Positions 20,294 through 62,206 are shown, numbered from the whole stretch's first letter. The stretch: 62,206 bases of DNA, filler included, from Nemertoderma westbladi (GCA_032718475.1; 3 parts of 3 records of this genome joined end to end with filler, not necessarily neighbours in it); one strand, 5' to 3'. Numbers and translations are program-made. The notes: generated from the sequence alone by a model not told the origin.

Positions 20294-20619
20294 CACAGTG
20301 CCACGGTAAATTATAGGTATGTCATGGGAGTAGAAATTAGAAACTTGACTGGTGAACGTGTGAAACACGAAACACTGGAGGCAACCCGAATGCTCCTCTC
20401 TCTTGGCTGTTACCAATAAGGCAGGAAGGGGCCACACTAACTCCACCAGCTATCTGGTGGCTTGGGAATAGCACAGCTGCATTTAGTGCCACAGGAGATG
20501 TATCGTGATGGCCAGTGTCTGAATTTTAATGATGGAGTTATTATTATTTAGCTTTGGTTACTTTCAGTGACACGTTTGACACTGTAGTACATCATTCCTA
20601 CTACTTACTACCTACCTAC

Positions 20620-26755: not shown

Positions 26756-26855
26756 NNNNNNNNNNNNNNNNNNNNNNNNNNNNNNNNNNNNNNNNNNNNT
26801 TAATTAATTAANNNNNNNNNNNNNNNNNNNNNNNNNNNNNNNNNNNNNNNNNNNN
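26756..26855. other. Artificial contig linker
   Basis: 44 N + TTAATTAATTAA (stops in all six frames) + 44 N. Confidence 0.97.
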
Positions 26856-29800: not shown

Positions 29801-32791
29801 TGATTCTCCAGAAATACCCTTCAAGGTTAGCTGTAAAGCATCAGATTCAGGGAATATACGATCAAAGATAGATTCATCCACAAAGGTGGCAGTGCTCCCA
29901 GTATCAAGAAGAGCATAACATTTATGCTCAACACCATTTCCGACAACTTTAACTGGTAGGATTGGATATTCACGAATACTTCGCTGCTTCTTCAGAAAAG
30001 ATTTGGCAAGAGACGAATCAACCTCCCCAGCTACATATACATCAGCTTCAGTGTCCTTTTCATACATATCCTTGGGTGAATATGAAGCTGACTCATCAAC
30101 GAGTTCTGCAAGAAGAACTGCTACAGCAGTAGATGAACTTGGGTCTCGGCATAATGAAGTATGATGGTGGTGCTTACAAACTTTGCAACTAACAGGAGAG
30201 GTACAGTCACCTACTGTATGTCCAGAGCGAAGACAATTAAAACACAAACTTTGTTTCAAAACGAATTCACGTCGTTGGGTTATATCATCTTTGAGGAAGG
30301 GTTCACATCGAGCTAAATAGTGTGATCCAGTCTTACACCGTGGACACTTGGAAAGACCAGAATAATCTTTGAAGGTCGATGATTTTAATTTTGGGACAGA
30401 GGAACCCAGTTTAGAAGGCATCTGTTGTTTATGATCAAAAACAGCACATGCACTCTCCTCTGCATTACAATCTGCAGATTCATCAGATACAATAATTGTA
30501 GAAGCAGGTAGCGCTGCCTCAACTGCAGGTTTTGGTTTCCAACGGAAAGAAGGCCGTGACTCGATTCTAGGCTGTTGACAGTGTACATTCTTTGTTGTCC
30601 AATAAGAAGTAGATGGTGCACCACTACACTCAGCCAAATCCACTTCAGATTCTAGGAATTTCATGAAATCTGCAAGTTTCTCAGAACGAGGGCTAACTCG
30701 ACAGGAATCAGGGTAGACCAGCCTTTTGACTACCTTGTACCAACGTCCTTCACTAGGTCCATGCAACTTCTGAACTAAAATAGATAAGACAGCAGCATTA
30801 TCGAGCTCATTAACTTGGCCAATTGTAGTGAGCTGAGTTACTATCCTTTCTAATGTATCAAAGTAGGGAATCACATCATGGCTACCTTTAAGGGTAGGGT
30901 AGTTGATTGCTTGCCGGTAAAGAGTTTGTGCAAGCCACCTAGGATTACCGTAACGCTTCTTGAGTTTCTCCCAAGCCCCTTCAAAGCCATTTGGAATCCC
31001 AATATGCTGCTCTACCATAAGGTGCGGCGGACCGGATGTAGCAGATAATAAATAATTAAGATTTTCTAAGGAAGATAACTCTCGACTAAGAACAGTTGAA
31101 GTAAAATATTGAAAAAAGGTAGGCCAGTTCTCTGGCTCTCCTTTAAAGGTAACAAATTTTGGTTGTGGAAGGAACCGACTAATCTCAGCTTGTGAAAGGA
31201 TTCGCATACTTGTTTGTTCTAAAGTTGTATTAAGGTTGGATGGCCGAGTCGTCCATAGTTCTTGGCCAGGATAGGAGGAATGTGCAGGGGGTGCAAATTG
31301 TACCGGCTGTGAAGATTCAGTTACATGATAGGATGGATAGGAATGTCCGTAATCACGTTCTGATCTGTCATACTGGTGCACAGATTCCTCTGGGTGTGTA
31401 AAATGTCTTGATTGGTGGGGTTGGGAGTCAAATGAACCTCTAGATAAAGAAACAGGTGCTGACTGAAATGGTGGATGTCGTGGAGGAGAACTACGAGGTG
31501 GGTGATGATGCAAATTCGAATTAAAGAACTCTTTCCGTGGATAAACTTCACCTTTTTGTGAGGGGGATAATCGTACATCCTGGGAAGGCATCCGAGGCCT
31601 AGTTGGCTGATTTTGAATAATATTTGACTTCGTAGGAACATTATATGGAGGTTTGACCAGACCACTGGCAGGAGGAATCCTCCCCTGTGGGTTAACACCG
31701 GAGATATGGTGATCATCTGGTGCTGAAGTATATAATCGCCGTGTTGGATTAGGGTTAGGTTCCTGAACCCGATAATTACCTCGTTGTTGGAGCTTCAATG
31801 GTGGGAAGGGGTTCACATTGGGATTTAATGGCACACGTGGTGTATGATTTGGTGGTTGAACTGACATTGGCTGTACTGATGGATCCATATTTGCCTTCAT
31901 GGGATTTTGCACCTGTGTAGAGGACAGTAATGGATTGAATTCCAAAGGTTGTGAGACTGGAGATTGACACCTTTGTTCTGATGTGTGGTTGGAATGAGAT
32001 GATGGTGAACTGAGCTCAGTGATTCGCACAGTCTCCCGTTGGGCAATTTCATCCAATGTAGCATTTATCTCCTCTTGCGCTTTTATCTGGGTAGCAGCCT
32101 GCTTTAATTTTAGGTTTGCTAACTTCTTCACTCGTTCCAATTTCTCTGCATCTAATTTGCGCTCAGCCTCGATTCGGGCACGCACTGTAGAACTAGCCTG
32201 ACTCCTCTGGGAATTTGATGAAGTCTGAGAAATACTGTCATCTGGGCAAAGTGTTAAGTCTGCAACCTTATTGACTGAAATATCAACCTGTGGACAATAA
32301 ACTGGTGCTACCAAAGTTTGAAAATGTTCGACTAACTCATTAAACAAAGTATCTGACTGTTCTAGATATAGCCGAAGCGGTTCACGTGCTGATAAAATGG
32401 CAAACCTACGCAATGTATAACTTAGATGCTTCCGTTTGTCTATTATTATTTGAATTTCATCTGGAAACCCCTTAACAGATTCAGGATCCACTTGAGCAGT
32501 TTGATCTTCTAAAATTTTCAGGATCTCATTTACACGACGTGTGAAACGACTAAAAAGACCACCAACCACTCTACGCCAACCTTCCCCTTCTAAAGAAGTG
32601 GTGGAAATACCTAATGCATTCAAACTAGTCAAAATTTCCTTCGAATCTTGGGAAGTACCGGTAGCTCCTCCAAGATAAGAATCTGATTGTGCCTGTGAAA
32701 GGTTACCACTGAGTGTACTATCTTGGTCTACATTCTCCTTGCTTTGTGTAGATTTCATACCTTTCTTACTGTGTGTGGATTGGGTACTCAT
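26856..32791 (-). mobile_element. BEL/Pao LTR retrotransposon gag-pol ORF, uninterrupted, cut by contig end before integrase
   Basis: Gag FKGEPENWPTFF; triple CCHC (CPRC..H..C, CFNC..GH..C, CKVC..HH..C); protease ALLDTGS; RT VRVVNDCA/ADIEAMF/YMDD; RNase H LHVFSDAS/TIPRAEL/NPADAASRG. Confidence 0.96.
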
Positions 32792-34294
32792 TTTATATTA
32801 AATAGGAACAGAATGATATGGTATTATGCTGAGGGAACTGCAGGCTGACAGGTATAAATTTATTTACCAGTAGGCCTATACTGATATAGGCCTATATACA
32901 TTTGTTGTAGGCCTACTGCTGTAACCTGTAGCTGTTACACTTTCAGTAGTACTATCAGACTATTAGACTATCAGACTATGGTAGAAATTTTGGAATTAAA
33001 TTACCGGTACAAATTTATTATAAACTGGGACCGGTATATATATTTATATAATAAATATTGAATTTTCGGAATTTGTAATGAATTAAATTCATAAATTCAC
33101 AGACCAGCAGACAGACACACACCGACTTGGGTGCACTACCACTACAGAACTGCTCCTGTGATCTGCTAGAAGTGAGGAAGATCCCACAACTAACGAACCA
33201 TGGAGACTGCAAAGCTCAACTCTGAACTCTGTCTGTATGCTTGTATGTCAAATACTGTACCGGTATGCCTATATAAAGTATATAGGCCAGATAATTACAG
33301 TAATTACCGGTATATACGGTAGGCCTACTTGATTACAGGTAGGCAGTCTGGCAGTTAGTTTTGTTAGCACCGGTATAACAGTATAACTCTAGTAAGCTAC
33401 CGGTATATACAGATATCAGGATATAACCAGGCCTACGTCATACAAGCTGACAAGTAGTGAAGTAGGGTATATCAGTATATATTGAGATAGATACCATGTA
33501 GCCTACCACCATTTAACAACATATGGCAGTATAGTAACGGTAGGTCTACAAAATATGGAGAAAATTAATTCCAATGCAAATTTTGGGTATAAAAATTATT
33601 AGTAGGCCTAGGCCTAGTGATGCATAGATCTATAGGCCACTATACCGATATAGAACTATACGAATGACAAGCAAAGACTGTGAAAAATTGAAATTCTGAA
33701 ATGTCAAAGTCGATTTTAACAATGTGATTTCTCAGAAGGATGGAACGACTTTGCATGGCTGCGATTACGCAATAAAGGGGGTCATGCTGTCATGGGCGTC
33801 TGGGCGTTGTAACTTGAATTCGAGAAAACTATCTCGCTCACAAACGGATAAATGGTGTCTATAATTGAGGTCAATGAACTTGCTACCTAGGCCTATCTAA
33901 CGTGGGAGGTTATTATGATATCAAGCTTTAATTAGGTTATACCCAAGAGGTTTATAAATAACTCCAAAAACTCACCGGTTTGATAATAATCGGCCCCCAA
34001 CCTAGGAGCTGTCTCCAGTAATAATTATTGTGGTTCAATAATATCGGCAATAGGTCTATAGCAATAAGCACCAACATCAACAACCAAACTGTAGGTCAAC
34101 ATTACAGCATTCAGGCATTAGAAATCTTGGAACTGTGGAATATTGAAATATATCCGAAAGTAGGGCGAGATAACAGTTTGTAGGGGTTTGGACCCTACAA
34201 ACGCTGTGTTTCAGAATTTCAAATGCCCCAATAATCCATCCTTGAGCTGTACACGGTACAGACGGTACACGGTACCGCTATCACAAGTAAAGGT

Positions 34295-34922: not shown

Positions 34923-35659
34923 TCATGCATTGTTGGAAAATTGTAATTCCGTAACGTAATTCCGTAACGTGAAATTGTAATTCCGTAACGCAAATATCTC
35001 GACTTATATATCACATTGCCACAAAAGGATAACAATTGCGTATTGCCCAGCGGTTAGAGGAAGAGAATTTAAAATTTGAATGTCACATATTGAGTAGCTT
35101 AAAAGCTATTTTAAAAAATGTCATGTTTTCGTTACGGAATTACGAAATTCGCAATAGCGTTTTGTTATTTTTTCAAACGAAGTTGATTTCTTTCTAGGAA
35201 ACCAAAATTAATTTATTTCTTATCTACAACCGAGGTTGAACCATCACTCACACAGGCAAACAAACAGACTAGGATTAATGTTATTTATAATGACTGTATT
35301 ATGCCCTTAATTGTAGGTAAAATTCGCACAGAGATTTTGGAAAATGTTAAAAAATGTTCAGTCAATTTCAACTTGCAAGTAGGAGCCCACACATACCGGA
35401 ATTTGCTTCCAATTTCTCATTTCAGATAATTTAGGATATTAGGCATGATATCCAATCATTAAAAAGATTATCCGCGAAGGTTTTTTTATGACCCTCTATG
35501 TCCGTTTATTCATGAACACTACCAAATCTTAAAAAGTTAAAATTTCATAAGCAGGGTCTCATAATTTTGATGAAAAATAAAAGTAGTCCCAGGACAAAAT
35601 TACAAAATTTTTCGTTTTCTAAAAACTAATAGTGTGGCAGTGTTGGCTAGATTTAGTAG

Positions 35660-36460
35660 GTTTTTCAAGACGCTGAATCGAATGTGATTATATTCCACTT
35701 CCAAAAATTGAAGTGGATGCTATTTTTCGTGCACCTAAGAAGTGGGCGTGGCACTTCAAATTTTGAAAAATTAGATATTCAGAAAATGCCCCTAATTTTT
35801 TTATTTCAACGCATCTTTATGGGTTTTCTGGGCCGCTGAATCGATTGAAAGTAATATAGAAGCCTGAAGACTGAGTGGTTCGCCATTTTTGGTGCACCAA
35901 AATTAGGGCGTGGCACTTCAAATTTTGAAAAATACGAGATTCGGAAAATAAACCAAAATTGAAATTTTAACGAATTTATATAGGTTTTCCAGACCGCTGA
36001 ATCGATTGAAAGTAATATAGAAGCCTGAAGACTTAGATGTTAGCCATTTTTTGAAATCAAAACTTTAGTGTTTTTTCCGAATAAAGAAATTTTGAAAATT
36101 TGAAGTGCCACGCCCTAATTTTGGTGCACCGAAAATTACGTACACAAAGGATTTGAGGCTTCTATATTACTTTCAATCGATTCAGCGCTCCAGAAAACCT
36201 ATAAAATTAATTTGAAATCAAAACTTTAGTGAATTTTCCGAATCTCGTATTTTTCAAAATTTGAAGTGCCACGCCCTAATTTTGGTGCACCAAAAATGGC
36301 GAACCACTAAGTCTTCAGGCTTCTATATTACTTTCAATCGATTCAGCGCTCCAGAAAACCTATAGAAATGCTTTGCAAATCAAAACTTTAGTGTATTTTC
36401 CGAATCTCGTATTTTTCAAAATTTGAAGTGCCACGCCCTAATTTTGGTGCTCCAAAAATG
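35660..36460. repeat. Foldback-like palindrome built from ~165-bp units
   Basis: GGGCGTGGCACTTCAAATTTTGAAAA and CGCTGAATCGATTGAAAGTAATATAGAAGCC occur forward in 35670-36030 and reverse-complemented in 36090-36460. Confidence 0.8.
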
Positions 36461-36689
36461 ACGTACCACTACACTTACATACTTGTATAGAGCATTAGAG
36501 TGATCCAAACCAATAAAAATAAATAAAAATAGCCCAAACATAAATAATTACTAAATCGCGAATGACTTTGTCAAATTCGAAAATTTCAAAAAATTTGGTG
36601 CTGGAGACCAAATTTTGAGGTGGCACCCACATCGAAAAGTAGAAATCCAATTGCAACGGCGTTTTTTGTCCCTCCTGGATCCCGTCACA

Positions 36690-37659
36690 TGCTAGGACTA
36701 TAGTCAAGAGATGGTGTGTAATCTTTGTTTGTATGACTTGTAGAGCCATCCATCTCGATATGGTGAACGATTTATCTACCAACAGCTTTCTATTAAGCTT
36801 ACGACGACAGATCGCTCGCTTTGGCACTAGTAACACGATGAGATCTGATAAGGGAACAAACTTCATTGGTGCTAACAATGAAATCAAAGCTTACGTCAAA
36901 GATTGGAACCAAAGACAGGTGGACGACCAACTACGAGTAACAGCGTCTAGTTGGACCTTCAACGCCGCCGACGCCCCTTGGTGGGGAGGAAGTTGGGAGA
37001 GATTAATAAGAAGTGTGAAGACGGCATTTCATTTTATAGTGCCTTGCCGCGCTTATCTCACCGACGAACTTTTGCGGACGTTAATGGAAGAAATCACCGC
37101 CTATCTCAACGAGAGACCGCTTATGCCAGTCTCATCGAGTCCCGATTCCCTGGAGGCGCTAACACCCGCGCACTTCCTACTGAAGAAACCTGTAGCCATG
37201 CTCCCACAATCGGAAATCACAGACGGAGACGAATACTGCCGACAAACTTGGCAACTCATGCAGTTGTTATCCCGTCGTTTCGCTGACCATTTCGAAAAAC
37301 ATTATCTGCCCATGCTACAACTTCGAACTAAGTGGTTTGCGCAGCAAGAAAACGTCAGCGCTGGAGACATGGTTCTTATTGTGGATGTAGATCTTCCACG
37401 TAAGCGGTGGCAGACAGGTCGTATAATCGAGACTCACATCTCGGATGACGGTTTGGTGCGATCGGTAGAACTCGTCGTCATGCGACGTAACTTCAAGAAA
37501 CCGGGAATTGTCTTCGAGACGCAGCAGCTCAATCGCCCAGTTGGTCGCTTATGTTTACTGGAAAGAGACAGAGAACTCTCCGGAAACTATGGGAGACAAG
37601 ATACTCTTCCCATGACCACCTCCCTAATCCAACAAACATCTAGGGACTCCCCAACTTAA
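36690..37659 (+). CDS. BEL/Pao integrase core and C-terminal (DUF5641-like) region, 5'-truncated
   Basis: KRWCVIFVCMTCRAIHLD, RSDKGTNFIG, APWWGGSWERLIRSVK, LNERPL, ALTPAHFL, DGLVRSV. Confidence 0.95.
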
Positions 37660-39303
37660 CAACGGCTGGAGTGGGTGTGTGACCATATTATTTTATATTT
37701 GTATTTGTTTTATTCTTTTATATTTATGTATGTATTATTATGTAATTTTATTTTAATCGTTTTATTTAATTTTATTTAGTAACATGTTATTTTAGCGAAC
37801 ATTTAGTAGATTAGTGCAATATATCCGCATTTATTACGTAATTACTTGTATTATATATTTAGTGCGACGGCGAAAAAAATAATTATTTTTCTCCTTCCTT
37901 ACTGTCCGTATTACATTATAAATACATGACTACAGTAAGATGAAATGTACGTACTTATTAAAGTACAATAAAGCCACTACTATATTCAAGTATTATTGGT
38001 AGGCAGAGTATTAGGAATGCAAAGTTCAGATCCTCGTGTCTCGGCTAAACCAAGCTCTGGGTAGACCTTGGAAACGACTTGCCTCTTCATACTGACATTG
38101 CTTCGTGCTATATTGCTCTCATACCGTATATTAAATAATACATATAGTAGCGTGATGTCCCTTTAACAGTAGCGTATAACGCAAAATAAATCTGTTAAAC
38201 CCTTTGACCATCTGTGATTCTAGTCGATTAAGATATTGCGGCACCCACCGATATACTTGAAAGACAAAATTCTAGAATCAGTGGTTAACGTCCCCAGACA
38301 AGTTCTGGAATAAACTGGTGCCCATCCTAAATATTAATTATTAATATTTACAAAAATCTGTCAAATATCAGATCCTTTAAAATTCTAGTCGATTAAGATA
38401 TCGTAGCACTTACCGATACTCTTAAAAGGACCAAATTCCTCGAACCAAGGATCCCAGTCCCCAGACACGTTCTGGAATAAAATTGTGTCTATTTAACATT
38501 AAATAATAAAATTTACGGGAATAAATTTAAATTCAGATATTTCAATGAATTTAATAAATTGTCATTTTATACAATTTATAACATTCCCAAAATTCCATTA
38601 ATTAATAGATCATGGGAGCGGAGATTCACTCTATTAAGTGTATTTGTGTACGAGAATCTCCAATGTATAGTCAATAGCCGATAAAATTCATAGAATCATG
38701 TATAAAGGGGATATTGACCATTAAAGAATTACTATTAAATAGCATCCCAGATCTGTATGCATGAGAGTTACCCTAATTCTACCGCTAGCTTTCCATAATG
38801 TCACCATGGCAACAACCACGCTAGAATTAGAAGTGAGTTAAAAGAACAATAGAAGGCATGCCCCATTGAATAGCATAGGGAATAAATAGCACACTGCTAG
38901 TATCCAAGGATACATAATAAATACAGTGACATTCTGGAAGGTACTGACTAATGGACAAATGGCCCGAATGTATGCAGTTTGTTGCAGTTGTGTTGAATTT
39001 GTGCGTTTGTAGGTGAATGTTACTACTAAGGTGTGTTTACAGTAGCGAGTCGCAATTGTGAAAGTAACCCTAACTCTCCAAGAAGAACCTGCAGTACATC
39101 TAAGCCTTTGGGACGGACAGTGAAGTGACTTGTGCAGGTTATCGTTGTCGTTGTGTAGCTACATCGTTGGCGAAAGCACAGCGACGACGGTACATCGGCG
39201 CTGAGGATCTTACACTGTCCGAGGGCAAAAGAGGGGTAGGCAGCGACGCCCACTAGCCTAATATATATAAACTCATTATAATATTGATAAACTCATAGCA
39301 GAT

Positions 39304-40515
39304 ATGACTGAGTTGATAGAAGATGATCTTGGTATCAGGGAGCGATATACTCTACCTTTACAAGCGTTTGTCGATAGCTTGATACGCGGCGACGCTGGTC
39401 CAACTACTACGGAGGATGATGGTCGTTATATCGAACCGCCAATGTCCCCGGAGCAACTTACGCGTGAATTGGATTATAGAAAGTTCACCGCTCGTTATAC
39501 GCATCGTAATGGTACGTATATGGACTTCCTAACTACTGGCCACCCTATCGATTTACACGATACAGACGATGTGGATACCGAAAGGGAAATGGTTTTATTT
39601 AAATATCATACCCAGCGGAATCGGAACGATAAGCCAAGAATAGAACACGAGAACTCTATTCGAAACAGACTCGAAAGAGAAGACGTTGAAGAGCCGGATA
39701 AACGCAACGACTTCAACGATTATCTGGAATTCTTGAGAGAAACATACCTCAATATTGCCAGTCAACAAAATCTCGAAACTCGATATCCTCAAGGTATACA
39801 TCATGATCCTATGATAGAACTCAAACGACTCTATTTCACTATGATGTATCTTACCGCCGATCGACCGCTACCTGATGTCCCAGATAGCTTCGAACAGATG
39901 GAGGAATATTGTAAAACTGGAGAACGATCACCCGCGTTTCCTCTGCAGGACATGCGTCTTTGGTATTACTGCGACGAATGCCCTAGACCCAATCAGCAAA
40001 CGGAAAGACATAAACATCCGCGGAGACGTTGCGCTAAACACAGTTTTACACGATATACTTATGGGAGTTTCGAGCGAAACCTGTTCGACGTGTCCCCTGC
40101 GGTCGCTCGACTCAAGCGATCCTTGAACAAACCGATGATCAGAGTTCCGGAATACTCGGTCAGACCTCCGCATTCCTTAGTTAGACCTCAAACTCTTGAC
40201 CCTAATAGTATCACGGATCCTCACGAACTGTACTCACTGTTCAAAGATCTAGTGTTACCCGAACAGTTGATCGGTGGCACTCCAGTAGTAGGCTCACGGG
40301 ACATTCGCCAGCCCTACCTAGCTGGATTGGGACGTGGTCATCTAATATCGCCGTTTAACCCATACAACCGTCCCGGCTTCACCTCTATCCAACCCGTTAC
40401 GGAAGTCGAAGAGAGCGTCGTACGAAACGCATTAGAAGCTATTCGGCAGAAAATCGGAAAGGGAACGTACGATTGTTTGGAGAAGCGTAAATTGCAGCAA
40501 CAAGTCCAACGGTGA
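39304..40515 (+). CDS. Retrotransposon cargo ORF-A, unknown function
   Basis: 403-aa open frame with ATG after CATAGCAG. No family recognised; contains CDEC...H.H...C..H. Confidence 0.7.
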   Translation: MTELIEDDLGIRERYTLPLQAFVDSLIRGDAGPTTTEDDGRYIEPPMSPEQLTRELDYRKFTARYTHRNGTYMDFLTTGHPIDLHDTDDVDTEREMVLFKYHTQRNRNDKPRIEHENSIRNRLEREDVEEPDKRNDFNDYLEFLRETYLNIASQQNLETRYPQGIHHDPMIELKRLYFTMMYLTADRPLPDVPDSFEQMEEYCKTGERSPAFPLQDMRLWYYCDECPRPNQQTERHKHPRRRCAKHSFTRYTYGSFERNLFDVSPAVARLKRSLNKPMIRVPEYSVRPPHSLVRPQTLDPNSITDPHELYSLFKDLVLPEQLIGGTPVVGSRDIRQPYLAGLGRGHLISPFNPYNRPGFTSIQPVTEVEESVVRNALEAIRQKIGKGTYDCLEKRKLQQQVQR

Positions 40516-41972
40516 AGGAATTAGCTTTACCCCAGTTCGATAGAGAAATACAAAATCTCGAGGAGGACATCGAACGTGGACGAACCTACTCTTTACAAGA
40601 GTTTCTAGATGAGCGTCTACAACAACAAGCGGAGGAGAATCAGCTCAAGGAGAGACATATAGAACTGGATGAGAGAGAAGAAGCGGCTTTAGCTCAACCC
40701 GAAGCGCAAATCCTTATGACGGATCTCTACTCTAAAACCATTCTTCATCCCTCGATGGTTCCCCATTTCGGAGACAAACTTTTTGCGACGGCACAACCCC
40801 AACCGGTTGATATCAACCTAAGATCTCGAGATCTTATCGCCGACGCTCCTATGTTGCAGCGTCCGCCCATCGAATCCGCTCGTGTCGATGGTATACTCGT
40901 TGAACCTCCGGACAATAGAGCAGATCTTGTCCGTCGCATGGTACACGATGTAAACATACGCGCTAGACCTTCACGGGACTCGTTTTACGGGATCAAAGAT
41001 CACCCTTATTACGTCAATCTAAAACAATATTACATGGTAAAACCGGAAGATCCTACACATAGTCTGAAGTTTCTACCGCTAATAAATCCTCTCGATCTTG
41101 TCGAACTCGAACAACTGCAGAAACATCTGGATCAGTTAGTTAAAGTAAACTCATTTCGAAAACCATATAATGTTTCCAGAATAGAGAAGGAAACCATACC
41201 TCCGTATAATCTTGATGGATTCATCAAAACTCGATTAGTACACTGGAATCTTGACGTGTTATTCGAGGAGGAAAGAATACAACGATATGGAGATGTGGAA
41301 ACATATACTACACAATACTTAAAGTACAGAGATCTACCTAATGCTAGCGAATGCGCTACCTTGTGGCATCCTGTGGGAATGACACTCGAAAACGCCACAA
41401 AGGAGTGGATCGAAACTCTTAACGTTATCGAGATGTATGGAGTTGTCACTTACGATAACGAAGGTAGCGTTCCGGTTGGAGAACTTGGAACTACGCGGAT
41501 GATACATATACGAGGACTCGCTGGTTCTACCCACGTATTTACTCGAGCGTGTTCCGACGTTATTGATTATTCTTTTGAAACTCTTACTGAGACACAAAAG
41601 AAACTCCGACATGGACAATTTGAACTTGCGCAGCGTTACGTCACCGACACCGAGCGCAAACCGGCCATGGGTATCGATGGATCGATGTTACCCCAACCCG
41701 TGCTCGAGATGTTGTTTAACGAAAGAATCCTTAAAATCGGCTCAGCTGTTTATGGAGACCTACAGAACGACTTTCGGAATATGGAGAACATTCCATACCC
41801 CTTCGTTGATACTCAGCTGATTGCTCCTTGGGCAGAAGGCCGAGGTTTCTTCCGCACTATGTATGCCAATACACCCAGCGGAATTACTAAAGTACAACGA
41901 ACCTCCATCGGACATCTTGCCTTTCAAGAATACGGATGGAATTTCAAGGCGCTTTCTGACTCCGTTCCGTAA
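40512..41972 (+). CDS. Cargo ORF-B: putative DnaQ-like/DEDD 3'-5' exonuclease (WRN/EXD/RNase D-like)
   Basis: ExoI-like VVTYDNEG (41454-41462), RMIHIRG..G..HVF, LPQPVLEMLFNERILKIGSAVYGD (ExoII-like), FVDTQLIA, TSIGHLA..YG..FK. An ExoIII YxxxD is not clearly found. Confidence 0.65.
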   Translation: MKELALPQFDREIQNLEEDIERGRTYSLQEFLDERLQQQAEENQLKERHIELDEREEAALAQPEAQILMTDLYSKTILHPSMVPHFGDKLFATAQPQPVDINLRSRDLIADAPMLQRPPIESARVDGILVEPPDNRADLVRRMVHDVNIRARPSRDSFYGIKDHPYYVNLKQYYMVKPEDPTHSLKFLPLINPLDLVELEQLQKHLDQLVKVNSFRKPYNVSRIEKETIPPYNLDGFIKTRLVHWNLDVLFEEERIQRYGDVETYTTQYLKYRDLPNASECATLWHPVGMTLENATKEWIETLNVIEMYGVVTYDNEGSVPVGELGTTRMIHIRGLAGSTHVFTRACSDVIDYSFETLTETQKKLRHGQFELAQRYVTDTERKPAMGIDGSMLPQPVLEMLFNERILKIGSAVYGDLQNDFRNMENIPYPFVDTQLIAPWAEGRGFFRTMYANTPSGITKVQRTSIGHLAFQEYGWNFKALSDSVP

Positions 41973-43308
41973 CGTTGATAGTCAGTTCAAGGACCGCGCT
42001 CTGACCAAACTCAGCCTGAGAGACTCAGCGGCGGAGAAGCTAAACAGCGCGGGATTTGCCCTTTTTCAGGACATTTGTATACAGAACTTACATTCATCTG
42101 TTATACAAAGACCCCGAATACCCACGGGTTATTCTGTCGTCGAAGTTCAGACAGTGGGTCCGCTTGCGGAGACAGCCGCACCTACCTCAGCTATGCAATT
42201 GGAAGACGAACCAATATGCTTAGAAGCTGAAGCGATTCAGCCTACAGCGCCCCGGAGCAGCGATAACGACTACGTCTTAGAGTGGTATCAAGGTCCACAA
42301 TGTCTCACCGCATACGATTATCGACACGCTAACTATGTTTCTCGAAAACGCTGTCGATTATGCGCATCGAGAGACCATTTCACCCCTATGGACTCAGACG
42401 TACCCTGCTCCTATTTCCACGAACAACCGATGATGGAGATATATTGTGCGTATTGCAGACTTAATAACTCTCATATTTTTGCAGTCTGCCCCCAATTTAT
42501 GACTCAATGCCACCACTGTCAACTTAAAGGACATGCCAGTTATAATTGCCCCTTTAATCACGATTTAGAGAGCGTAGATGAAATGATTACCCTGCGCTAC
42601 ATCCGAGCTTGGGAAGCTAACGCGGATTTACATTGTGAGTCCCGTCATCGATACTACCCTGGACGCTCTTACGAGGGAGTTTACGCGTTCCATCCTTATT
42701 TATTAGCGTCTGTGAAACAAAAAACACGCATACCGAGTTACGAGCTAATGAAGCGTGTTGGTGAGTGTATTTCCACTAAATTTGTTCGAAGATACCTTAG
42801 GAACGTCAATCCTAACGATATTACTTCATACCATTTGATCAATTATATCCGTCAAGACCCTGAGTATGGCGATTTATTTATCAACTCGCACCCTGAGTTA
42901 CAGGAAGTATCTCGACGGCCCTACGAATATCGAGCCCGAGAGCACGAGCTGGAAAGAACTATTAAACCAAGGAAGTTTTTCACCACTCACGGTCCGCCTA
43001 CCGCCGTTGTCCAGACGACCCGTAAAGGACCAGTAGGAGCTGCTGTCCTAAGACGCGCCCTAAAGGCCGTTAGACCTCGCTCCGCTGATACACCGGCGGA
43101 TACACCGATCGCAATCCGAAACCTTCTGATGCAATTGTATTGCACCCTTCACCCAGGAGTTACAGCCCTCCTAGTAAAGTGGCTCGCCCCAAAGAGAAAA
43201 GGACTCTTGCTAGCCTCAAAAAACTGCGTAAACGCCGTCCGCGTAAGAAAGACTAACTGTTTAGAGTATTTTTATATTTTAGAAACTGTGATTTGTTATA
43301 TTTTATAG
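41821..43308 (+). CDS. Cargo ORF-C: CCHC zinc-knuckle protein, probably the frameshifted continuation of ORF-B
   Basis: CRLCASRDH...C, CAYCRLNNSHIFAVC and CHHCQLKGHASYNC at ~42350-42550. Confidence 0.7.
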   Translation: MLLGQKAEVSSALCMPIHPAELLKYNEPPSDILPFKNTDGISRRFLTPFRNVDSQFKDRALTKLSLRDSAAEKLNSAGFALFQDICIQNLHSSVIQRPRIPTGYSVVEVQTVGPLAETAAPTSAMQLEDEPICLEAEAIQPTAPRSSDNDYVLEWYQGPQCLTAYDYRHANYVSRKRCRLCASRDHFTPMDSDVPCSYFHEQPMMEIYCAYCRLNNSHIFAVCPQFMTQCHHCQLKGHASYNCPFNHDLESVDEMITLRYIRAWEANADLHCESRHRYYPGRSYEGVYAFHPYLLASVKQKTRIPSYELMKRVGECISTKFVRRYLRNVNPNDITSYHLINYIRQDPEYGDLFINSHPELQEVSRRPYEYRAREHELERTIKPRKFFTTHGPPTAVVQTTRKGPVGAAVLRRALKAVRPRSADTPADTPIAIRNLLMQLYCTLHPGVTALLVKWLAPKRKGLLLASKNCVNAVRVRKTNCLEYFYILETVICYIL

Positions 43309-43334
43309 ACTTAAATCCCATTTTCTGGGAGCGG

Positions 43335-43949
43335 TGTAAAAGCTTTTGCGTAATTAACCGGTTATTTTCCCTTAAAGGTACTCTGTAGTTGGCTTACCAG
43401 GCATAAAAAGGCCGTGTCCTTACTGTACTGGTGTTTTAGAGGACATAAAAGTCATTTCTTCTGTATTTGTACTTTAGAGGACATAATCCGCAATCTCGTG
43501 ACGCAATAAGCTAGATCCTCTTGAAAACAGTGTCGCTACCATGATGACGGCTAACAGCTGATATTGCCACGTCGAACCTTTCTTTGTTCTTTGTTCTCTC
43601 TTTGCTCGGTCGACTAATCAGAGCGTTTTTTGACTCTGTGTTGGAGTTGGATACAGAAACTCAGTAGTTCAGTGTTATGTTTTTGCCCAGAGCCTAAGAA
43701 CACCGGCTTTTGGCACCTCCGTGTTTCAGTCTTTAGTTTAACATTAGTAGGCTTAATTATAGAACGTATATCTGTTATCGAGTTACTTAACTCAACAAAC
43801 CGAGTTATCTTACCATATCTTACTAATATTACTGCTTTTACTGTCGGTTATTCATTATATTTGTTGATGAAATATTATATCGGAATACTGATCAATAGTC
43901 AGACACCCCAATCTTCTTGATATACTAAAGGTTAGAGAGACCGGTTACA
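43335..43949 (+). mobile_element. Putative 3' LTR (615 bp)
   Basis: Starts TGTAA, ends TTACA, preceded by the purine-rich tract GGGAGCGG. No second copy in the window. Confidence 0.7.
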
Positions 43950-44686
43950 TATAAACGATTGCGACCTATGTTAAGTGGTTTGAAGTGAATTTAATGCTAT
44001 TTCATAGGCCCGACATAAATTGTATGTTGCTCTCTTTATACGTGACTAAATTTAGTGAAGGTCGGCAGATTAGTGTGCAGTATTGTGCAGCATTGTGTAT
44101 GATTGTAACTGATAACAAAGCATCTCCTAAAGAATGCGCCATATACGTGAATCTATAGCCTTTTCGTTGTGTCTAGTTTAAGTCGTAACTCTGTTTACAT
44201 ATTTAGAGCGCCACGTCCTAAAGGAACTGTTAATATTTCCCGAAAGTGAATAATATTTGTCAGAGATTATATATTACGATCAGTCGAATAATACAGTAGG
44301 CTTACACCATCAATCATTAAGCTTCCGAATTCAGTCTCCCAGGTATATCCAGCGGGTGAATGATTGCGCATAGACTGGCTTCGGCTAATGTAGTGTATCA
44401 AATACTCGTCATAGGCTAAAGACTATATATCATCTAAAAGACATCCTAATTTGGCAGGTTAAACTGTCAAAGGTCTTAAAAGCGCAAACAGAGTTAGTTA
44501 TGATTATTTGAAATTTATCAATGAATTGGAGTTGAGCTGTTAATGCAACTGTAATTAAAGGTGTCGCGCTTTCTCATTTTTCCATTTCTGAACAAAACCA
44601 TAATATTACACATTTGAAATTTGAATTGAATATACAATCGTATATACAAAAGTGTAAAAAGTGCCGGGGACATATGATATGTTGTC

Positions 44687-44766
44687 CCCCCCCCCCCCCC
44701 CCCCCCCCCCTACCTGAAAAGTGGGAGGGACGTGTCCCCCCCATCCCCCCTATGGCTGCGCCACTG
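44687..44766. mobile_element. hAT-like terminal remnant
   Basis: GGGACGTGTCCCCCCATCCCCCCTATGGCTGCGCCACTG resembles a CAGTGGCG-type terminus; the partner end was not found. Confidence 0.4.
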
Positions 44767-45244
44767 TACGCCAAGTTAGTCCACACCCATGTACCGTACT
44801 GCCGTAACCGTACTGATGTATCATCGATGTCATAAACTCATACAGGGTGCCGCGTGCCGGTGCGGAGTGGAGGTGTAATCAGGTAGGAAATAACTCATTC
44901 TGTACTTTTCGCCTGGCCTGTGTCGCTGTGTCTGTATGTGCTTAACCTACATCGATACATGTGCTTATCCAATGAGCGCTGGGGCGCGGTATGTCTGTAA
45001 TCTGTATGTACTCTGGTACTGACTGACTGACAAGGTATCAGGAGAGGAGAGGCCCAGTACTCATCAGTCATCACTGGTCATCACTTCAGCACTTACTCTC
45101 TATATTACAGTATTACTTCTGTACTTACAGTATTTCTGTATTTATCAGGCCTATATAAACAGATATATAAAGTTCAACGTTGTGTTTGTGTAGGCTAAGT
45201 TAAATACTGAATTATTACAATGCGATTGGTATTTTATTATTATT

Positions 45245-45673
45245 ATGGCCGTTTGCGTTGCCGTTATTGCTAAAGAGAACTACCCGCTGTACATCCGTAC
45301 TGTTCCGGTAAGCAACTCCGACCCTCTGAAACTCCGATATATGGTGCACACATCCCTGGACGTGGTGGAGGAAAAAATATCCGCCTCCGGAAAAAATCCT
45401 ACTGAATTCCGAGAGCTGTACCTAGGTTTACTTTATCCCACTGAGGATTATAAAGTCTACGGTTACGTGACTAACAGTAAAGTAAAGTTTGTAATCGTGG
45501 TGGATTCTTCGAACACTTTATTACGGGATAATGATATAAAGTCTATGTTTAAAAAGCTCCACGTTGCGTATATTGATATGGTCTGTAACCCTTTTTATAC
45601 TCCTGGAGAAACTATTAGCTCTAATCCTTTCGATTCTACAGTTGAAAGTATGATGGCTCAAGGAATGTTTTAA
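45245..45673 (+). CDS. TRAPPC2L: Trafficking protein particle complex subunit 2-like, intronless CDS
   Basis: [63 protein letters not shown]. Confidence 0.97.
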
Positions 45674-45775
45674 TTTACATTATTCGTGAAATAATTAATA
45701 TAATTTTTGTATTTGACTTCAGGGCCATAGGCCTATGCTAATAAGTTGAAAGGAGTCTACTGATTAATATCTTAT

Positions 45776-46651
45776 ATGAGTGACATTGCCGTGGAATATG
45801 TTGCCGGAGCTGTAGCTGGTACGGTCTCTGGTTTGGTTTCCTTCCCGCTAGACACCCTCAAGGTGCGACTACAGACGCAGCCCAGCAAACAATACCGCAA
45901 TATATTCCATGCGGTAGTAAAGATAGCCAGACAGGAAGGCCCTTCGGCTTACTGGAAGGGTCTCCCTTTACCTTTACTAGCGGCCTGTCTGCTAGACGGG
46001 ATTACCATCCTGACTTACGAGCGATCTCTAGCAATTATCTTCGCCTCCAAAGAGACCCCGTTATCCAGCGCTGTTTGTGGCGCAGTCGCTGCACTGGTGG
46101 ACAGCACTTACTCAGTACCGGTGGAGCTTCTCAAAATACAAGGACAGACAGCAGGAGTGGGCCGTCCCACTATTGGTTTCCTAGCGACCACAGTCTCACA
46201 ACTACGAGCTGACCTTCTTTCTTCCTCGACAATCAACTCTTTCTACTTCGGGTGGAGAATTTCCTTGATTCGCGATATCCCGCTCTACAGTTTAACCTTC
46301 CTTTCCTACTACGCGATTCGCAATCGCTTCCCGGCGGAGCTTCGCAACAACACCGGGGTTCTTCTAGCGGCCAGCAGCTCGGCTACGCTGCTAGCCGGCA
46401 CGATCTGTTACCCGTTGGACGTCGCTAAAACCCGCTACCAATCGCGGTGGAGAGGGCCTTACAGTCGCGGTTTGGTGCGTGAGTGTCTCCTAGAGGCGTT
46501 ACTGGACAGCCGCCACCGGTACCGCGGTCTAACAACCGCCCTGCTAGCAGACACCCCTTATATGGCCTTGTATCTGGTGTTACAAACCAAAGTGCTGCAC
46601 TGGTTCGGACACAGATGCGCCCCGGAAAAAGTTAATAATTCCATTAATTAA
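45776..46651 (+). CDS. Mitochondrial carrier (SLC25 family, resembling SLC25A29/45/48), intronless
   Basis: Three carrier signatures PLDTLKVRLQ, PVELLKIQGQ, PLDVAKTRYQ; 291 aa. Confidence 0.92.
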   Translation: MSDIAVEYVAGAVAGTVSGLVSFPLDTLKVRLQTQPSKQYRNIFHAVVKIARQEGPSAYWKGLPLPLLAACLLDGITILTYERSLAIIFASKETPLSSAVCGAVAALVDSTYSVPVELLKIQGQTAGVGRPTIGFLATTVSQLRADLLSSSTINSFYFGWRISLIRDIPLYSLTFLSYYAIRNRFPAELRNNTGVLLAASSSATLLAGTICYPLDVAKTRYQSRWRGPYSRGLVRECLLEALLDSRHRYRGLTTALLADTPYMALYLVLQTKVLHWFGHRCAPEKVNNSIN

Positions 46652-46757
46652 TTGCAATAAATAGATATTTATTTAACTAATATTATAAATTATAATAAAT
46701 AAATAAATATAATAAATATATATTATTGTCTGGACAATAATAACTCTATTGTTTCCA

Positions 46758-47531
46758 ATGGATTCGCTTAGCGAATCATTTCCATGGGAATTTTCCGTTA
46801 TTTTCCGCGTTTTATTTCCCGACGGCACAGAATGCGATCGGTTGATTGTATCCGCAGCCGTTCCTACCGGTTACTCTAGCGACGATAGCCACAATCTCGT
46901 TGTCGCTAGGACACCGACCTCGTTTCGCTACCGCGCTCGGGTGCACCCCCAAGCGGCGGCTGCCGTTATCACCCTGGCCTCGAACTCGCCGCTTTTCGCG
47001 TCGCGTTTACTCCGGAATCGACCCGGGTCGGATAAACCGGTTAGACTTTCGTTACATATTGACGCCGCCTTCCGATTGGCTACTCATTGCGATATCCGAT
47101 GGGGTGCGAAGATTCTCCCGCTAACCAACTGTCGGATGGAGTTAGAGAACTCGCTAGCCTGGTTGTCTACGCTAGGGGGCGCTCACTCGAGTCTGGGGGA
47201 GTCTGACGCCGGACATTCCGTACAAGCGGGTCGCCTCGCGCGGCAGCAGTTCCAACTAGCGGCCAGACTCGGGGACCTTATCCTACAGGCTTACTGTCGC
47301 GTCTACCTCGCCATCAGTCTAGCGCAGCGCGGCCATCTAACGAGGGCATTGCGAATCGCACACAGAGAGTTCCGGTTCGCGGATACGCCGCAAGGGGGCT
47401 GCGACACGAGACTCAAGGCTATGTGTCTGCACGTTGTACACCGGTGTAAGGTGAACCAGAGCAGTGTCGCAGTAATTAATAATAATCCTTTAATTAATAT
47501 TAATGATATAAACATTGAACAGTTTAGATAG
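46758..47531 (+). CDS. Conserved uncharacterised protein, DUF4807 / F58A4.6-like, intronless
   Basis: ELENSLAWLSTLGGAHSSLG...AGRLARQQ..LA.RLGD....AYCRVYLAISLAQRG; first ATG at 46758. Confidence 0.82.
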   Translation: MDSLSESFPWEFSVIFRVLFPDGTECDRLIVSAAVPTGYSSDDSHNLVVARTPTSFRYRARVHPQAAAAVITLASNSPLFASRLLRNRPGSDKPVRLSLHIDAAFRLATHCDIRWGAKILPLTNCRMELENSLAWLSTLGGAHSSLGESDAGHSVQAGRLARQQFQLAARLGDLILQAYCRVYLAISLAQRGHLTRALRIAHREFRFADTPQGGCDTRLKAMCLHVVHRCKVNQSSVAVINNNPLININDINIEQFR

Positions 47532-50490: not shown

Positions 50491-50991
50491 TTCGCCCATT
50501 AATTATAATGTATTACTTTTCATAATTAATAAGTAATTATTATATTCGAAAATGGAAATAATACTGTTAATTCCTTAGGTAGAACATCAGATTACTGCAT
50601 CTGATACTCAGATACTGCAGCTAAAAATCTACTACAAGAATCACTATAATAAATAGGATTTTAAAACATCTCAAGTTGTAATCTTATAAAGTGAAAGATT
50701 ATAAGACTGCAGCCTACAGGTAGTAATAGTGTGTAAATAATAGTAATTTATCATTCCACGATCCAGCGACTACTTACTAGCAGTATTGGCAGTTCCCGTC
50801 CCTTAGATTAAAGAGAATAAGGAAAAGAAAGAAAATAAAATAAAGATAACAGACGGGACGAGAATATTACTAACTGTATTATGCTTAGCAGTTCGGGTCT
50901 CACCACCACTGACCACTGCTGCACTGTACCGTATCCCCTTTATCCTGTAGCTTACTAAATTCAGAAATTAGGTATTCAGGCCTATCCTATC

Positions 50992-52620
50992 ATGGATGAT
51001 TCTGGCAACGGGATGAGCTGCAGGGAGCCGCCAATCAGCACAGAGATTGAAACCTGTCCGGGTCAGCAACCATCCAGCAGCAATGACGACTCACTTTCCC
51101 ACGTCTCCCACCCTCCCGGTATCCCTCCCCCCGCCTGTGCCGACGACACCTCGTCACAAGAACGTAGGTTTATCGCCCAGTCCATCCTCTACTACTCCAA
51201 GGGTTCCCCCTGCCACTCGGTGGCTTCCAACCCGCCCATCGTCTCGGAAACCGACGTAGACATCTCGTTGGTGGACTCCGTTAGCGAGTACGGTTGCAAC
51301 CTGGACGCGTGCAGTCGGCCGAACAACACGCGGGGCGGCTCGGTGGACCATCCGAGCGGCCAGTTGGAACTAACGGTAAACGCGATCACAGGTAGTCGGG
51401 TGAACACAAACCCGCTGGGGTACACCGGGGTGGTTGAGGATACCGAGGAAGACAGGGATGACTGCTGTGGGATAAACACCAAGGTAGGCCTGCATAATGA
51501 TTGTATGAGAACCGACGACGCCGGTGATACAGACGATGATACCGAATTCGATGAGGCATTCGAATCGAGTCGACGGGCGGAAACTGTCCGGTCTTCGGAG
51601 TTTCCGCGAGAGGGTAACCATGGTGATGGGGTCCCTGGGGACGACCGGGGTCGCTTTGCGAAGGAGCCGTCGTCGCCAGATTCCGTTACGCCGTCGCCTG
51701 GCAACCCGCTATCCATAGACGCGTTGCTAAGCGATCCCGACGAGTTTCCTAGCGACCGGGACGCGTTGCTTAGCGACGCGGACCCCATACCTCGCGACCC
51801 CGCCCCGTTGCTAACCTTCGCTGCGCTCGTTCTGTCGTGGCGCTCGCTGAATCTCCGCGAGTTCCGCCCGCTGATCCGCGCTAAGCGACGCAGTAACGTC
51901 CGGGGCGTCCGTCGGTTGTTCCGTCTCTACACGCCACTAAACCCGTCGCTACGCAACGACCGCGGCTACCTCTACGCGATGTCGCTCTGTCAATTCGAGA
52001 ACTCCAATAAAACGCACTGCGCCACACTGCAGACAATATACAGACACATCGTAGGGGCCGCTCGCACCGGTACCGACACAGACTGCCCCCGGTTCGGCGC
52101 TCATTGGGAGCTCATCGGGTTCCAAGGCAACGACCCGGCCACGGACCTCCGCGGAACCGGTATGCTGGGCCTCGTCCACCTCCACTATCTCGTGTCGACC
52201 CCGCGACTCGCCGCGCTCGGCCGCGATGTCCACGCGCTCTCCCGCCATCCCGTCAACGGATTCCCCTTCGCGGCCCTCGGTATCAACCTGACCAAACTCG
52301 TTCTCGACGTGACGCGAGAGAAGCGACTCAACGCTGCGTTCAACCGTAGTCGTGACGTTATCGCCGCGAGCTGCGAGTTCTACGTCGCTCTCTACCTCCG
52401 ACTCTACCGGGTGTGGCGCGGCGGTAAGTCCATTCTCGATACTCCCTTCGTCCTCAGGGAAATTGAGAACGCGGCTCGAGCCAAACCCGCTCGGTTGCTC
52501 ACTGAACTCGAGGAGTTTCTCGGCGACGACCAACAATTCCGTGACGGACCGAGACGAGCGGATAAAAGTGAGATCGTCTTTAGTAATATTGATGCATTCC
52601 CGTCTAATGTAGAAATATAA
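50992..52620 (+). CDS. ELMOD3: ELMO domain-containing protein 3, intronless, with long acidic disordered N-terminus
   Basis: LQTIYRHI, CPRFGAHWELIGFQGNDPATDLRGTGMLGL, FPFAALGINLT. Confidence 0.9.
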   Translation: MDDSGNGMSCREPPISTEIETCPGQQPSSSNDDSLSHVSHPPGIPPPACADDTSSQERRFIAQSILYYSKGSPCHSVASNPPIVSETDVDISLVDSVSEYGCNLDACSRPNNTRGGSVDHPSGQLELTVNAITGSRVNTNPLGYTGVVEDTEEDRDDCCGINTKVGLHNDCMRTDDAGDTDDDTEFDEAFESSRRAETVRSSEFPREGNHGDGVPGDDRGRFAKEPSSPDSVTPSPGNPLSIDALLSDPDEFPSDRDALLSDADPIPRDPAPLLTFAALVLSWRSLNLREFRPLIRAKRRSNVRGVRRLFRLYTPLNPSLRNDRGYLYAMSLCQFENSNKTHCATLQTIYRHIVGAARTGTDTDCPRFGAHWELIGFQGNDPATDLRGTGMLGLVHLHYLVSTPRLAALGRDVHALSRHPVNGFPFAALGINLTKLVLDVTREKRLNAAFNRSRDVIAASCEFYVALYLRLYRVWRGGKSILDTPFVLREIENAARAKPARLLTELEEFLGDDQQFRDGPRRADKSEIVFSNIDAFPSNVEI

Positions 52621-52869: not shown

Positions 52870-52969
52870 NNNNNNNNNNNNNNNNNNNNNNNNNNNNNNN
52901 NNNNNNNNNNNNNTTAATTAATTAANNNNNNNNNNNNNNNNNNNNNNNNNNNNNNNNNNNNNNNNNNNN
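52870..52969. other. Artificial contig linker
   Basis: 44 N + TTAATTAATTAA + 44 N. Confidence 0.97.
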
Positions 52970-57805: not shown

Positions 57806-58649
57806 CACGATTCTCCTCTCTCACCAGACTGGTGGTGCCTTAGAAAAGCTCAGTAGGGTAAGGGATAACTAAGTATGGTCTTAATTAGTTTAAATCAGTG
57901 ATGGCCTACCTCCTATCTGCGTTCTGCCAATGTTTCGTACAAATATTCCCCTTTATGTGCCAATTTACCCCTGATTTTTCAGTGCTGTGTTCCTCAACTA
58001 ACATGCTATTACTATACCTACTAGTCAATTACTACGTAAGTAATTCATCACTACTTATCTACAGAGAAGACTAGCTACAATTTTCTTAGTCTTGTACTAG
58101 CTTCCTACCATACAACTCGGGCTCTGTAACAATGCTCTAACTCTGCACTACGGGCTATGCGCTACAGTAGTCTAGTTCGTGCGGCCTACACGGTCTATTC
58201 CACTATGGCTACATACCCCCTTCAACTCCTCATGTGGCGCCCTCAGTGCCCACTATAGTACGTACTACGTACTATTATTGGTTCCATTGACCCGGCATTT
58301 GGTATTTATTACGTACATTGGCACATTGTGCCCATCAGACGTATGCAGCATATACCCTTCTAATCCTCACTATGATACCATGTACCCTTCTACTGATATT
58401 GGTCCTATTGACCCGGCATTTGGTGCGTATGTAAACTAGGTACGTTGGTACATTCGTACCCATCCGACATACGTAATTATAACCACCTACACCTAAATAT
58501 TATGTACATTGGTACGTCCGTACCCGTCAGACGTACATAATGTCTACCTAAAACTAATTATTAATGTACCTTGGTACTATATTTATATTTTTTATTTTAT
58601 TATTTTTATTTTGTGTGTGGGAAGGGCGTCTCGCCCTCATTCCCACCCC

Positions 58650-61600: not shown

Positions 61601-62206
61601 ATATTGCCCCCCTTCATACTTCATTGATCTCCTGACGCTCTCCTGCGCCTGCTTGTCCTCTACCGAGGTTCCTACCCCGGTAGCTACGTTCCGACGGGAA
61701 GTTTATCTTCGATCCCTTCTTCTACCTTCCTCCTCGTTCCAGTACACTCTGTACACCTCACCCGGTGTGTGATATATTTCGCCAGGCTGTGTTTCTCCGG
61801 GGCGACAGCAATCTCCCGAAGTACAACCCCATCGGCCCTCCCTCTCTACCTTAACTATCGACGGTTCACTGTCCATCCTATCTCACGTCTCTGGTTGCCC
61901 GTAACAACATTTCCTCCGTTCCTCCTCGCGTCCTCCAGTTTTGGCGCTATATCCACGTTCATGAGTCTCGTATCGACCTCCCAGATGAACTCTACTGTTC
62001 TCCTTCCGTCTTCTGAGTAGGCTCGACATTTTCTCTTTTGGCTGCTTACGGCACCAACGTTCCTCCCTCTACCTGGTTGTATGGCCTCGGGGATATTCAT
62101 TGCCTTTCTACTCTCCTCTGTCGTTGGGAGCCCCGGTTTACTTAACTCACCACGCGCGTTTCCCGCCGACGCCTGCGGGGAATTTATTGCCCCCCTCATA
62201 CACTCA
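58650..62206 (-). mobile_element. Degenerate BEL/Pao pol (RT, RNase H, integrase) with many frameshifts and stops
   Basis: FYMDD, IYDPLG, DNPADLLSRG, CQTC, KRYGIIFVC, SDNGTNFVG, YWKRWIQEYLP in separate frames. Confidence 0.92.

Follow-up and report, generated by a model that had tools for sequence, protein, structure and literature searches.

BEL/Pao retrotransposons, elements with long terminal repeats (LTRs), have been described from metazoans only (PMC2774666), and the ICTV profile of the Belpaoviridae records only env-like third genes, in genomes of 4.2-10 kb (PMC8742986). Third open reading frames (ORF3s) with a DEDDy nuclease domain have been described in the rotifer elements Juno, Vesta and Athena/Terminon (PMC5408684) and are restated in PMC6431247, PMC5718144 and PMC6338049; in these, no deviation from neutral evolution was seen, and copy number was not clearly linked to them (PMC5408684). 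In the trypanosome RNase D TbRND, CCHC zinc knuckles hold the body of the RNA and the exonuclease domain trims its 3' end (PMC7797062). Here we describe a locus of Nemertoderma westbladi (GCA_032718475.1) at which a BEL/Pao integrase is followed by a cargo gene (39304-43308). An earlier note, made from the sequence alone, had taken this cargo for a DEDD-like exonuclease with zinc knuckles in the env position and had named DEDDy reading frames in LTR elements of bdelloid rotifers as a precedent, which is borne out by PMC5408684. The window, i.e. the whole stretch of DNA that was analysed, has 62,206 nucleotides and consists of three contigs joined by N-spacers (26756-26855 and 52870-52969).

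We read the cargo as the third gene of a BEL/Pao family, which would encode a large RNA-binding, RNase D-like, non-envelope protein. Taken as a whole, this reading may prove wrong as easily as right. The argument makes use of the following features:

36690-37659, + strand: 5'-truncated BEL/Pao integrase (remainder of the core and DUF5641 C-terminal part), from Pfam, database matches and a step in depth
39271-40515, + strand: ORF-A, ATG at 39304, 402 codons to the frame change; likely the N-terminal part of ORF3
40491-41972, + strand: ORF-B, family frame to 41947; its last 190 codons hold the RNase D-like domain
41439-41465, + strand: ExoI-like strand with Asp 41454 and Glu 41460, at invariant columns of 31 bacterial DEDDy proteins
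41697-41837, + strand: ExoII block with Asp 41757, a gap-free 47-residue match to RNase D
41821-43308, + strand: ORF-C, the frame used by the family beyond the break (from 41948); it holds the ExoIII-like block, a linker, the knuckles and a C-terminal part without assignment
41947..41948, + strand: place where this copy lacks a stretch present in other copies, with loose ends on both sides
41980-42048, + strand: ExoIII-like block, non-canonical; the Tyr column is occupied by Asp 42022, the last acid column by Glu 42034
42352-42549, + strand: three Cys/His zinc knuckles, CX2CX4HX9C, CX2CX5HX4C and CX2CX4HX4C

The motifs lie where the earlier note had placed them: VVTYDNE with Asp 41454 and Glu 41460, the ExoII block with Asp 41757, and FVDTQ at 41802. 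Its assignment of the domain to the DnaQ-like, RNase D/WRN type is supported by NCBIfam, our own profiles, hhalign, MAFFT and the ESM Atlas. Only two of the 18,950 NCBIfam models matched, both of them RNase D: TIGR01388 with an expectation value (E) of 0.0019 for the longer query and 5e-4 for the shorter, and NF008089 with 0.012 and 0.0036. Our own profiles were built from 40 of the 99 PF01612 matches found in 41 bacterial genomes. The RNase D profile (12 sequences) gave 17.2 bits, a score reached by none of 1000 shuffles, and stayed at or below 0 bits in all six control frames outside ORF-B. The WRN-like profile (11 sequences) gave 4.3 bits and the pooled profile (38 sequences) 11.5 bits, each above all 1000 shuffles. 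With the 38-sequence profile hhalign reported 61% probability over 47 gap-free columns; 0 of 100 shuffles did as well and the six control frames reached 0.6% at most. The ExoII block was equalled in none of 200 shuffled three-frame scans. In the MAFFT alignment with the 31 reference rows, Asp 41454, Glu 41460 and Asp 41757 coincide with invariant columns, and an insertion of about 40 residues lies between strand 3 and the ExoII helix; the C-terminal part of this alignment is unreliable. In the ESM Atlas, PF01612 clusters came first (0.90, 0.88, 0.88) and the ten best named matches all belonged to one family or clan.

Several results weigh against this assignment. Pfam PF01612 gave no match at E up to 10; the PDB yielded no sequence match to a DEDD nuclease, phmmer returning only noise at the level of glutamine synthetase; and folding of the single sequence gave a predicted local distance difference test score (pLDDT) of 32 and no fold match in Foldseek. 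The NrnC profile produced no signal (345 of 1000 shuffles as high) and the PolA profile no match, ExoI by itself did not reach significance (160 of 200 and 239 of 2000 shuffles), and the Atlas recognition value of 2079 lies in the weak band, with 137 of 256 features shared. A model built on DEDDy rows reached pLDDT 66 and matched RNase D, WRN, EXD2 and Rrp6; being circular, it carries no weight. One could therefore ask whether the RNase D likeness has arisen by chance in an orphan knuckle protein of some other kind, since only the 47-residue block is significant and Pfam, PDB and single-sequence folding give nothing. However, three differently built tests agree on the same family, and three motifs stand in the right order with their acids in place. 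We regard a chance likeness as very improbable and a DnaQ/RNase D fold as highly probable.

Other copies of the element provide a further line of evidence. The stretch or parts of it are present in five of seven public runs, one of which may be the source sample, and four of these runs were mapped over 35400-45000: X1, X3, X4 (organism A) and X5 (organism B). The mapping covers the best 40 of 1563 difference rows, 33 of about 75,000 pieces and 12 of 130 indel rows, and the summed depths do not give a copy number. In 41380-42120, 35 of the 40 best-supported differences between copies (out of 118) are synonymous, whereas 23-31% are expected from the codons (binomial p 1.7e-13). Left of the break at 41947/41948, 26 of 30 are synonymous in frame B; right of it, 9 of 10 are in frame C. 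This bias by frame also shows the coding sequence to run in frame B and then in frame C. With 35 of 40 differences silent, the cargo was under selection, and the gene appears to have been kept by it. Two points qualify this conclusion. The bias is weaker outside 41380-42120, with 7/11 in A, 1/2 in B and 3/6 in C (integrase 5/5; 24 coding rows), and the difference rows are best-supported subsets, neither independent events nor a ratio of nonsynonymous to synonymous rates (dN/dS).

The earlier note had found ExoIII not clearly present. The canonical YxxxD is indeed missing from this copy, but an ExoIII-like block does exist at 41980-42048. It has the best ExoIII score over all three cargo frames (26 of 200 shuffles; within 100 codons after the break, 23 of 2000). 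Against a regular DEDDy site stands the finding that YxxxD is invariant in 37 of the 37 reference rows with a residue there, where this copy has DxxxE (42022-42036). ExoIII is either rewired in the family or present as a canonical copy in the missing stretch; when the break was bridged with X, the hidden Markov model (HMM) match gained no ExoIII. Because canonical ExoIII was not found in this copy, we do not file the domain as a canonical member of the DEDDy group, though on the evidence so far it would work like one.

These observations bear on the question of whether the protein cuts at all. The RNase D fold and the knuckles might only bind RNA, for packaging, transport or as a decoy for silencing factors. 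Such a pseudo-nuclease would be in line with a best ExoIII block in which the Tyr is missing and the last Asp is replaced by Glu, with the insertion between strand 3 and the ExoII helix, and with the inactive DEDD derivatives in the biogenesis of PIWI-interacting RNAs (piRNAs; PMC5408684). Yet three catalytic acids are kept, the only listed difference in their codons (41759) is silent, the fourth acid is still acidic and a canonical ExoIII could sit in the missing stretch; we thus consider a non-cutting protein unlikely. Egalitarian and EXD1 are RNase D-fold proteins that are not known to cut. For intact copies we lean slightly towards predicted catalytic competence, either through a D-E-D-E acid set or through a canonical ExoIII in the missing stretch.

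No homologue of the cargo turned up in the collections searched, which makes it an orphan gene. None was found for ORF-B among 1.84 billion representatives, and none of 338 candidates among proteins of 864-2465 residues was homologous to its residues 250-493. For ORF-C, 0 of 3125 proteins of 248-791 residues were homologous, and the ESM Atlas gave no usable match. Metagenome, viral and prokaryote contigs held no homologue among 96, 2 and 111 pattern matches, and none of five exact look-ups succeeded. A tblastn search of plasmids returned only three matches at E 5-7, one of them on an RNase D gene; in PHROGs the best E was 0.063, with an exonuclease family at E 0.38. ORF-A matched no family in Pfam, NCBIfam, PHROGs or PDB.

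As to the three CCHC-type knuckles of the earlier note, all three are present, but only the last has canonical spacing. Pfam zf-CCHC_3 matched them at E 0.0012, below the cut-off, Air2 matched the region weakly (E 0.97), and comparison with stored proteins gave one weak match among 77 (E 0.009). The nucleocapsid of BEL/Pao Gag, with spacings CX2CX3-4HX4C, CX2CX2-4HX4-5C and CX2-4CX3HX4H (PMC554778), was rejected as the source of the knuckles, since the spacings differ from that pattern. The highest 19-residue hydropathy is 0.82 in A, 0.71 in B and 1.18 in C, and the N-terminus is acidic. Thus no transmembrane (TM) segment was detected in the cargo by 19-residue hydropathy; no dedicated signal-peptide predictor was applied. 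Because no 19-residue window exceeds 1.18, the cargo is not an env gene, in agreement with the earlier note. An envelope or fusogen ORF3 was likewise rejected, as hydropathy gave no signal or fusion peptide and no TM anchor.

The nearly continuous coding sequence of about 4 kb that had been described resolves into three long frames, which are interrupted by a frame change near 40510 and by the missing stretch at 41947/41948. Together the parts comprise 402 + 479 + 452 codons, i.e. 1,333 codons with two breaks. At the first of these, the alignment of one X4 contig breaks off at 40509, 9 letters before the contig's end, and no indel row falls on the junction among the best 12 of 130. A programmed frameshift was rejected there, as 40471-40530 contains no slippery heptamer. 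In intact copies A probably joins B as one ORF. At the second break, loose ends occur after 41947/41948 in all four runs and before it in three of the four, with median lengths of up to 145-152 letters (22 of 116 rows); no indel row is listed at this place and none of the 32 listed contig pieces crosses it. Given loose ends on both sides and no crossing piece, other copies hold a stretch that is absent here. It measures about 150 nt or more and lies inside the nuclease domain. B and C would be joined through this stretch in intact copies, and the intact ORF3 is likely one large protein of about 1,380 residues or more. The present copy is dead, being 5'-truncated and internally deleted. Within ORF-A, a CxxC followed by His/Cys residues (39970-40050) could be a further zinc site.

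Whether the cargo belongs to the same BEL unit as the integrase can be judged from the mapped runs. The mapped contigs indicate that other copies repeat the integrase, the cargo and the start of the LTR as one set. The depth in every bin of 36684-44387 was 70,499-1,279,965 in X1 and 56,027-744,137 in X3, compared with 47 and 39 at 44709-45000; in X5 it was 3-109 across the element and 0 in the flank. In X3, single contigs have a depth of about 5,000, against 8 for a flank contig of 2.2 kb, which suggests that the family has hundreds of copies. Contigs bridge 37684 (104 letters to the contig end, X5), 38942 (122 letters in X4, 105 in X5) and 39027-39438 (X4). There are also points against a common unit: X4 shows no depth contrast (180-28,990 against 604 in the flank), in X1, X3 and X5 the cargo is about threefold less deep than the integrase, and no contig spanning the whole element was found in the pieces from the four runs. 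On balance we hold it highly probable that cargo and integrase belong to one unit.

Other copies include deletion derivatives, in which 37569 is joined to 38802 (X1) or 39672 to 42201 (X4, X5). The latter joint drops the nuclease and has a depth of 2918 in X4, also occurring in X5. The X4 depth is very high at 39252-39572 and 43104-43424, a sign of abundant internally deleted derivatives.

The limits of the element depend on four further features:

37660-39303, + strand: spacer, AT-rich (35% GC), with a 165-nt-spaced duplication at 38217/38382
37667-37680, + strand: G-rich purine tract and TGT directly after the integrase stop, a possible relic of a polypurine tract (PPT) and LTR start
43324-43334, + strand: candidate PPT, rank 7 of 422 TG sites
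43335-44443, + strand: candidate 3' LTR, end uncertain, from its TGTAA start, depth and end motifs

This spacer probably serves the cargo gene as its leader or promoter. When it was scanned for bacterial promoters, a method not applicable here, 8 were found against 7.2 expected by chance. The tract at 37667-37680 ranks 2-4 among 422 TG sites by the G content of the preceding 11 bases, and an AATAAA lies at 38882. The BEL element could thus end at a PPT and LTR directly after the integrase (37667 on), and the cargo would then be a separate repeat or lie inside an unusually long LTR. The tract is the most G-rich one followed by TGT after the integrase core, AATAAA at 38882 and a CACA ending at 38893 could close an LTR of 1.2 kb, and the cargo depth is below the integrase depth. 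However, multi-copy contigs cross 38893 (those bridging 38942) and, at 39027, run into ORF-A, a second PPT with TGTAA follows 27 nt after the ORF-C stop, no TCACA end occurs within 2.5 kb of 37678, and a cargo within the LTR should be deeper than the integrase but is shallower. Such an early end of the element therefore seems quite improbable to us. As contigs bridge beyond it, the 37667 tract is less likely the true 3' LTR start, and 37667-39303 may be an internalised old LTR kept as leader or promoter of the cargo.

For the downstream end, the earlier note had given a PPT and an LTR at 43335-43949. The purine tract and the TGTAA stand (43324-43339), but the end at 43949 is unsupported: TTACA ends occur at 43949, 44199, 44306 and 44610, a TATAAA starts at 43950, the repeat depth remains elevated as far as about 44,430, and in X3 positions 43954 and 44031 are joined in one contig. 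A length of about 1.1 kb is likely for the LTR, whose end would lie nearer 44,430-44,445. No second copy of this LTR candidate was found in the window, and Rfam gave no match over 35500-45000.

The integrase itself occupies the open frame 36643-37659 (+) and ends at 37659, as the earlier note had it. Pfam finds DUF5641 in this frame at E 2.8e-20, and 75 of 76 database matches of the integrase contain it; tblastn of the window protein P0003 covers 36664-37503. By the type of its predicted integrase the element is BEL/Pao, and since the identity never exceeds 41%, it belongs to a divergent BEL/Pao lineage. The integrase is truncated near 36690, as seen from the step in depth at the 36684 bin and, in run X3, from a loose end before 36690, and neither gag nor protease nor reverse transcriptase (RT) was found upstream of it on the + strand within the window. 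A full-length element would measure about 13 kb.

The surroundings comprise host-type genes and other repeats:

45194-47531, + strand: Sedlin/TRAPPC2L-like, mitochondrial carrier and DUF4807 genes, host-type

These three genes are packed into 2.4 kb, each in a single frame without evident intron, and the frames of an NDR family protein (4991-5932) and an ELMO domain (50959-52620) resemble them in layout. Together with the BEL/Pao elements, the three genes speak for an animal source. The C-terminal part of a protein kinase (Pfam Pkinase E 3.7e-17) lies in an 847-codon frame at 17294-23163 (-); after it come about 3 kb of an 18-nt tandem repeat, in which several frames are open. A fold-back repeat at 35712-36471, just upstream of the truncation point of the integrase, consists of units of about 160 nt in both orientations and is repeated elsewhere in the genome. 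Long inverted repeats at 8179-13631 derive from inverted pieces resembling long interspersed nuclear elements (LINEs), with RT and endonuclease matches.

Two other BEL/Pao pieces are present in the window. A separate gag-pol frame of 1,997 codons (26804-32797, -) runs into a contig end. It was rejected as a part of the cargo element because it lies on the opposite strand and has a much lower GC content at third codon positions (GC3) and CpG observed/expected ratio (0.33 and 0.54, against 0.41-0.50 and 1.1-1.4 in the cargo-bearing element). The third BEL/Pao piece (58600-61700, -) is frameshifted and has a purine tract and TG directly after the integrase, the ordinary layout. Neither of the two contains a match to the cargo.

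What the protein would do can be proposed by analogy. The zinc knuckles would hold single-stranded RNA and the RNase D-like site would trim or degrade an RNA 3' end; that the substrate would be RNA rather than DNA is suggested by trypanosome RNase D. As targets we favour short host RNAs that restrict the element, i.e. piRNAs, small interfering RNAs (siRNAs) or fragments of transfer RNA (tRNA). This target is a tentative proposal, somewhat less likely than not. Counter-defence is favoured because such a role would suit an accessory gene that is dispensable, yet under selection, and occupies the env slot. Exonucleases that suppress host defence have been described for arenaviruses (PMC7968707), which is an analogy only.

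Alternatively, the nuclease could be active in the replication of the element itself, trimming the tRNA primer, the 3' end of the genomic RNA or the cDNA ends. This role has been proposed for the rotifer DEDDy ORF3s (PMC5408684, PMC6431247) and likewise for the DEDDy domains of Dada transposons (PMC3706591), and the knuckles resemble RNA binders of the nucleocapsid type. Yet replication proceeds without such a gene in most BEL/Pao elements (PMC8742986), and no cargo match occurs in the two other BEL pieces of the window; we think a replicative role rather unlikely.

The counter-defence proposal can be carried further. In its fullest form, the env slot would have been turned into an anti-silencing protein of about 1,400 residues, a nuclease with knuckles and a rewired D-E-D-E site, which would destroy piRNAs or tRNA fragments and be transcribed from an internal former LTR. 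The conjunction of all these steps is doubtful at best. If it were true, the protein would be to transposons what the immune-suppressing exonucleases are to viruses, as well as a case of convergence with the trypanosome guide-RNA trimmer, and it would explain the high copy number. Should the protein act on piRNAs, it would be one of the rare silencing suppressors encoded by an animal transposon, and one open to a direct biochemical test.

No DEDDy cargo in BEL/Pao elements or combined with knuckles was found in the largely open-access literature covered; the word exonuclease does not occur in the available texts of PMC3118150, PMC2774666, PMC13524379 and PMC554778. The locus would extend the range of nuclease cargo to BEL/Pao elements, in which the third genes described so far are fusogens, and add the layout of exonuclease plus knuckles so far described for a trypanosome small-RNA trimmer. 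An RNase D-like domain may already have been noted in a Cer element of C. elegans, which would then be a precedent within BEL/Pao. With the strong silent-site bias of its nuclease region in an apparently abundant family, the system is better suited than the rotifer elements for asking what the cargo does.

With Tas, roo, Cer7 and the BEL elements of mosquitoes that carry chuvirus glycoproteins, the element shares the integrase family and, as predicted, a third gene between pol and the PPT/3' LTR. The third genes of the described BEL elements are fusogen-like glycoproteins (PMC8742986, PMC13524379, PMC554778), whereas the cargo here has no TM segment, and the predicted length of about 13 kb exceeds the 4.2-10 kb of the Belpaoviridae. 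Dada DNA transposons also carry a DEDDy 3'-5' exonuclease domain (PMC3706591), but unlike in our cargo it is inserted in the DDE transposase and keeps all four acids. TbRND (PDB 7c42-7c4c) has the same succession of an RNase D-type exonuclease domain, a linker and several CCHC knuckles; unlike the cargo, to which no PDB sequence match was obtained, it is a host mitochondrial enzyme of 375 residues with four knuckles and the full DEDD set. There is a likeness in position and content with Juno, Vesta and Athena/Terminon, where pol is likewise followed by an ORF3 that is no env gene, encodes an RNase D-like DEDDy domain and lacks a TM segment, and where the acid set is altered as well (DEED in rotifers, where activity has not been shown). 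The present element differs from them in its BEL/Pao carrier, a protein of likely about 1,380 residues with an unassigned N-terminal part of 690 residues, and three C-terminal knuckles. In the text of the rotifer paper the words zinc and CCHC are absent and only a Cys-His-Cys motif in two ORFs is mentioned (PMC5408684).

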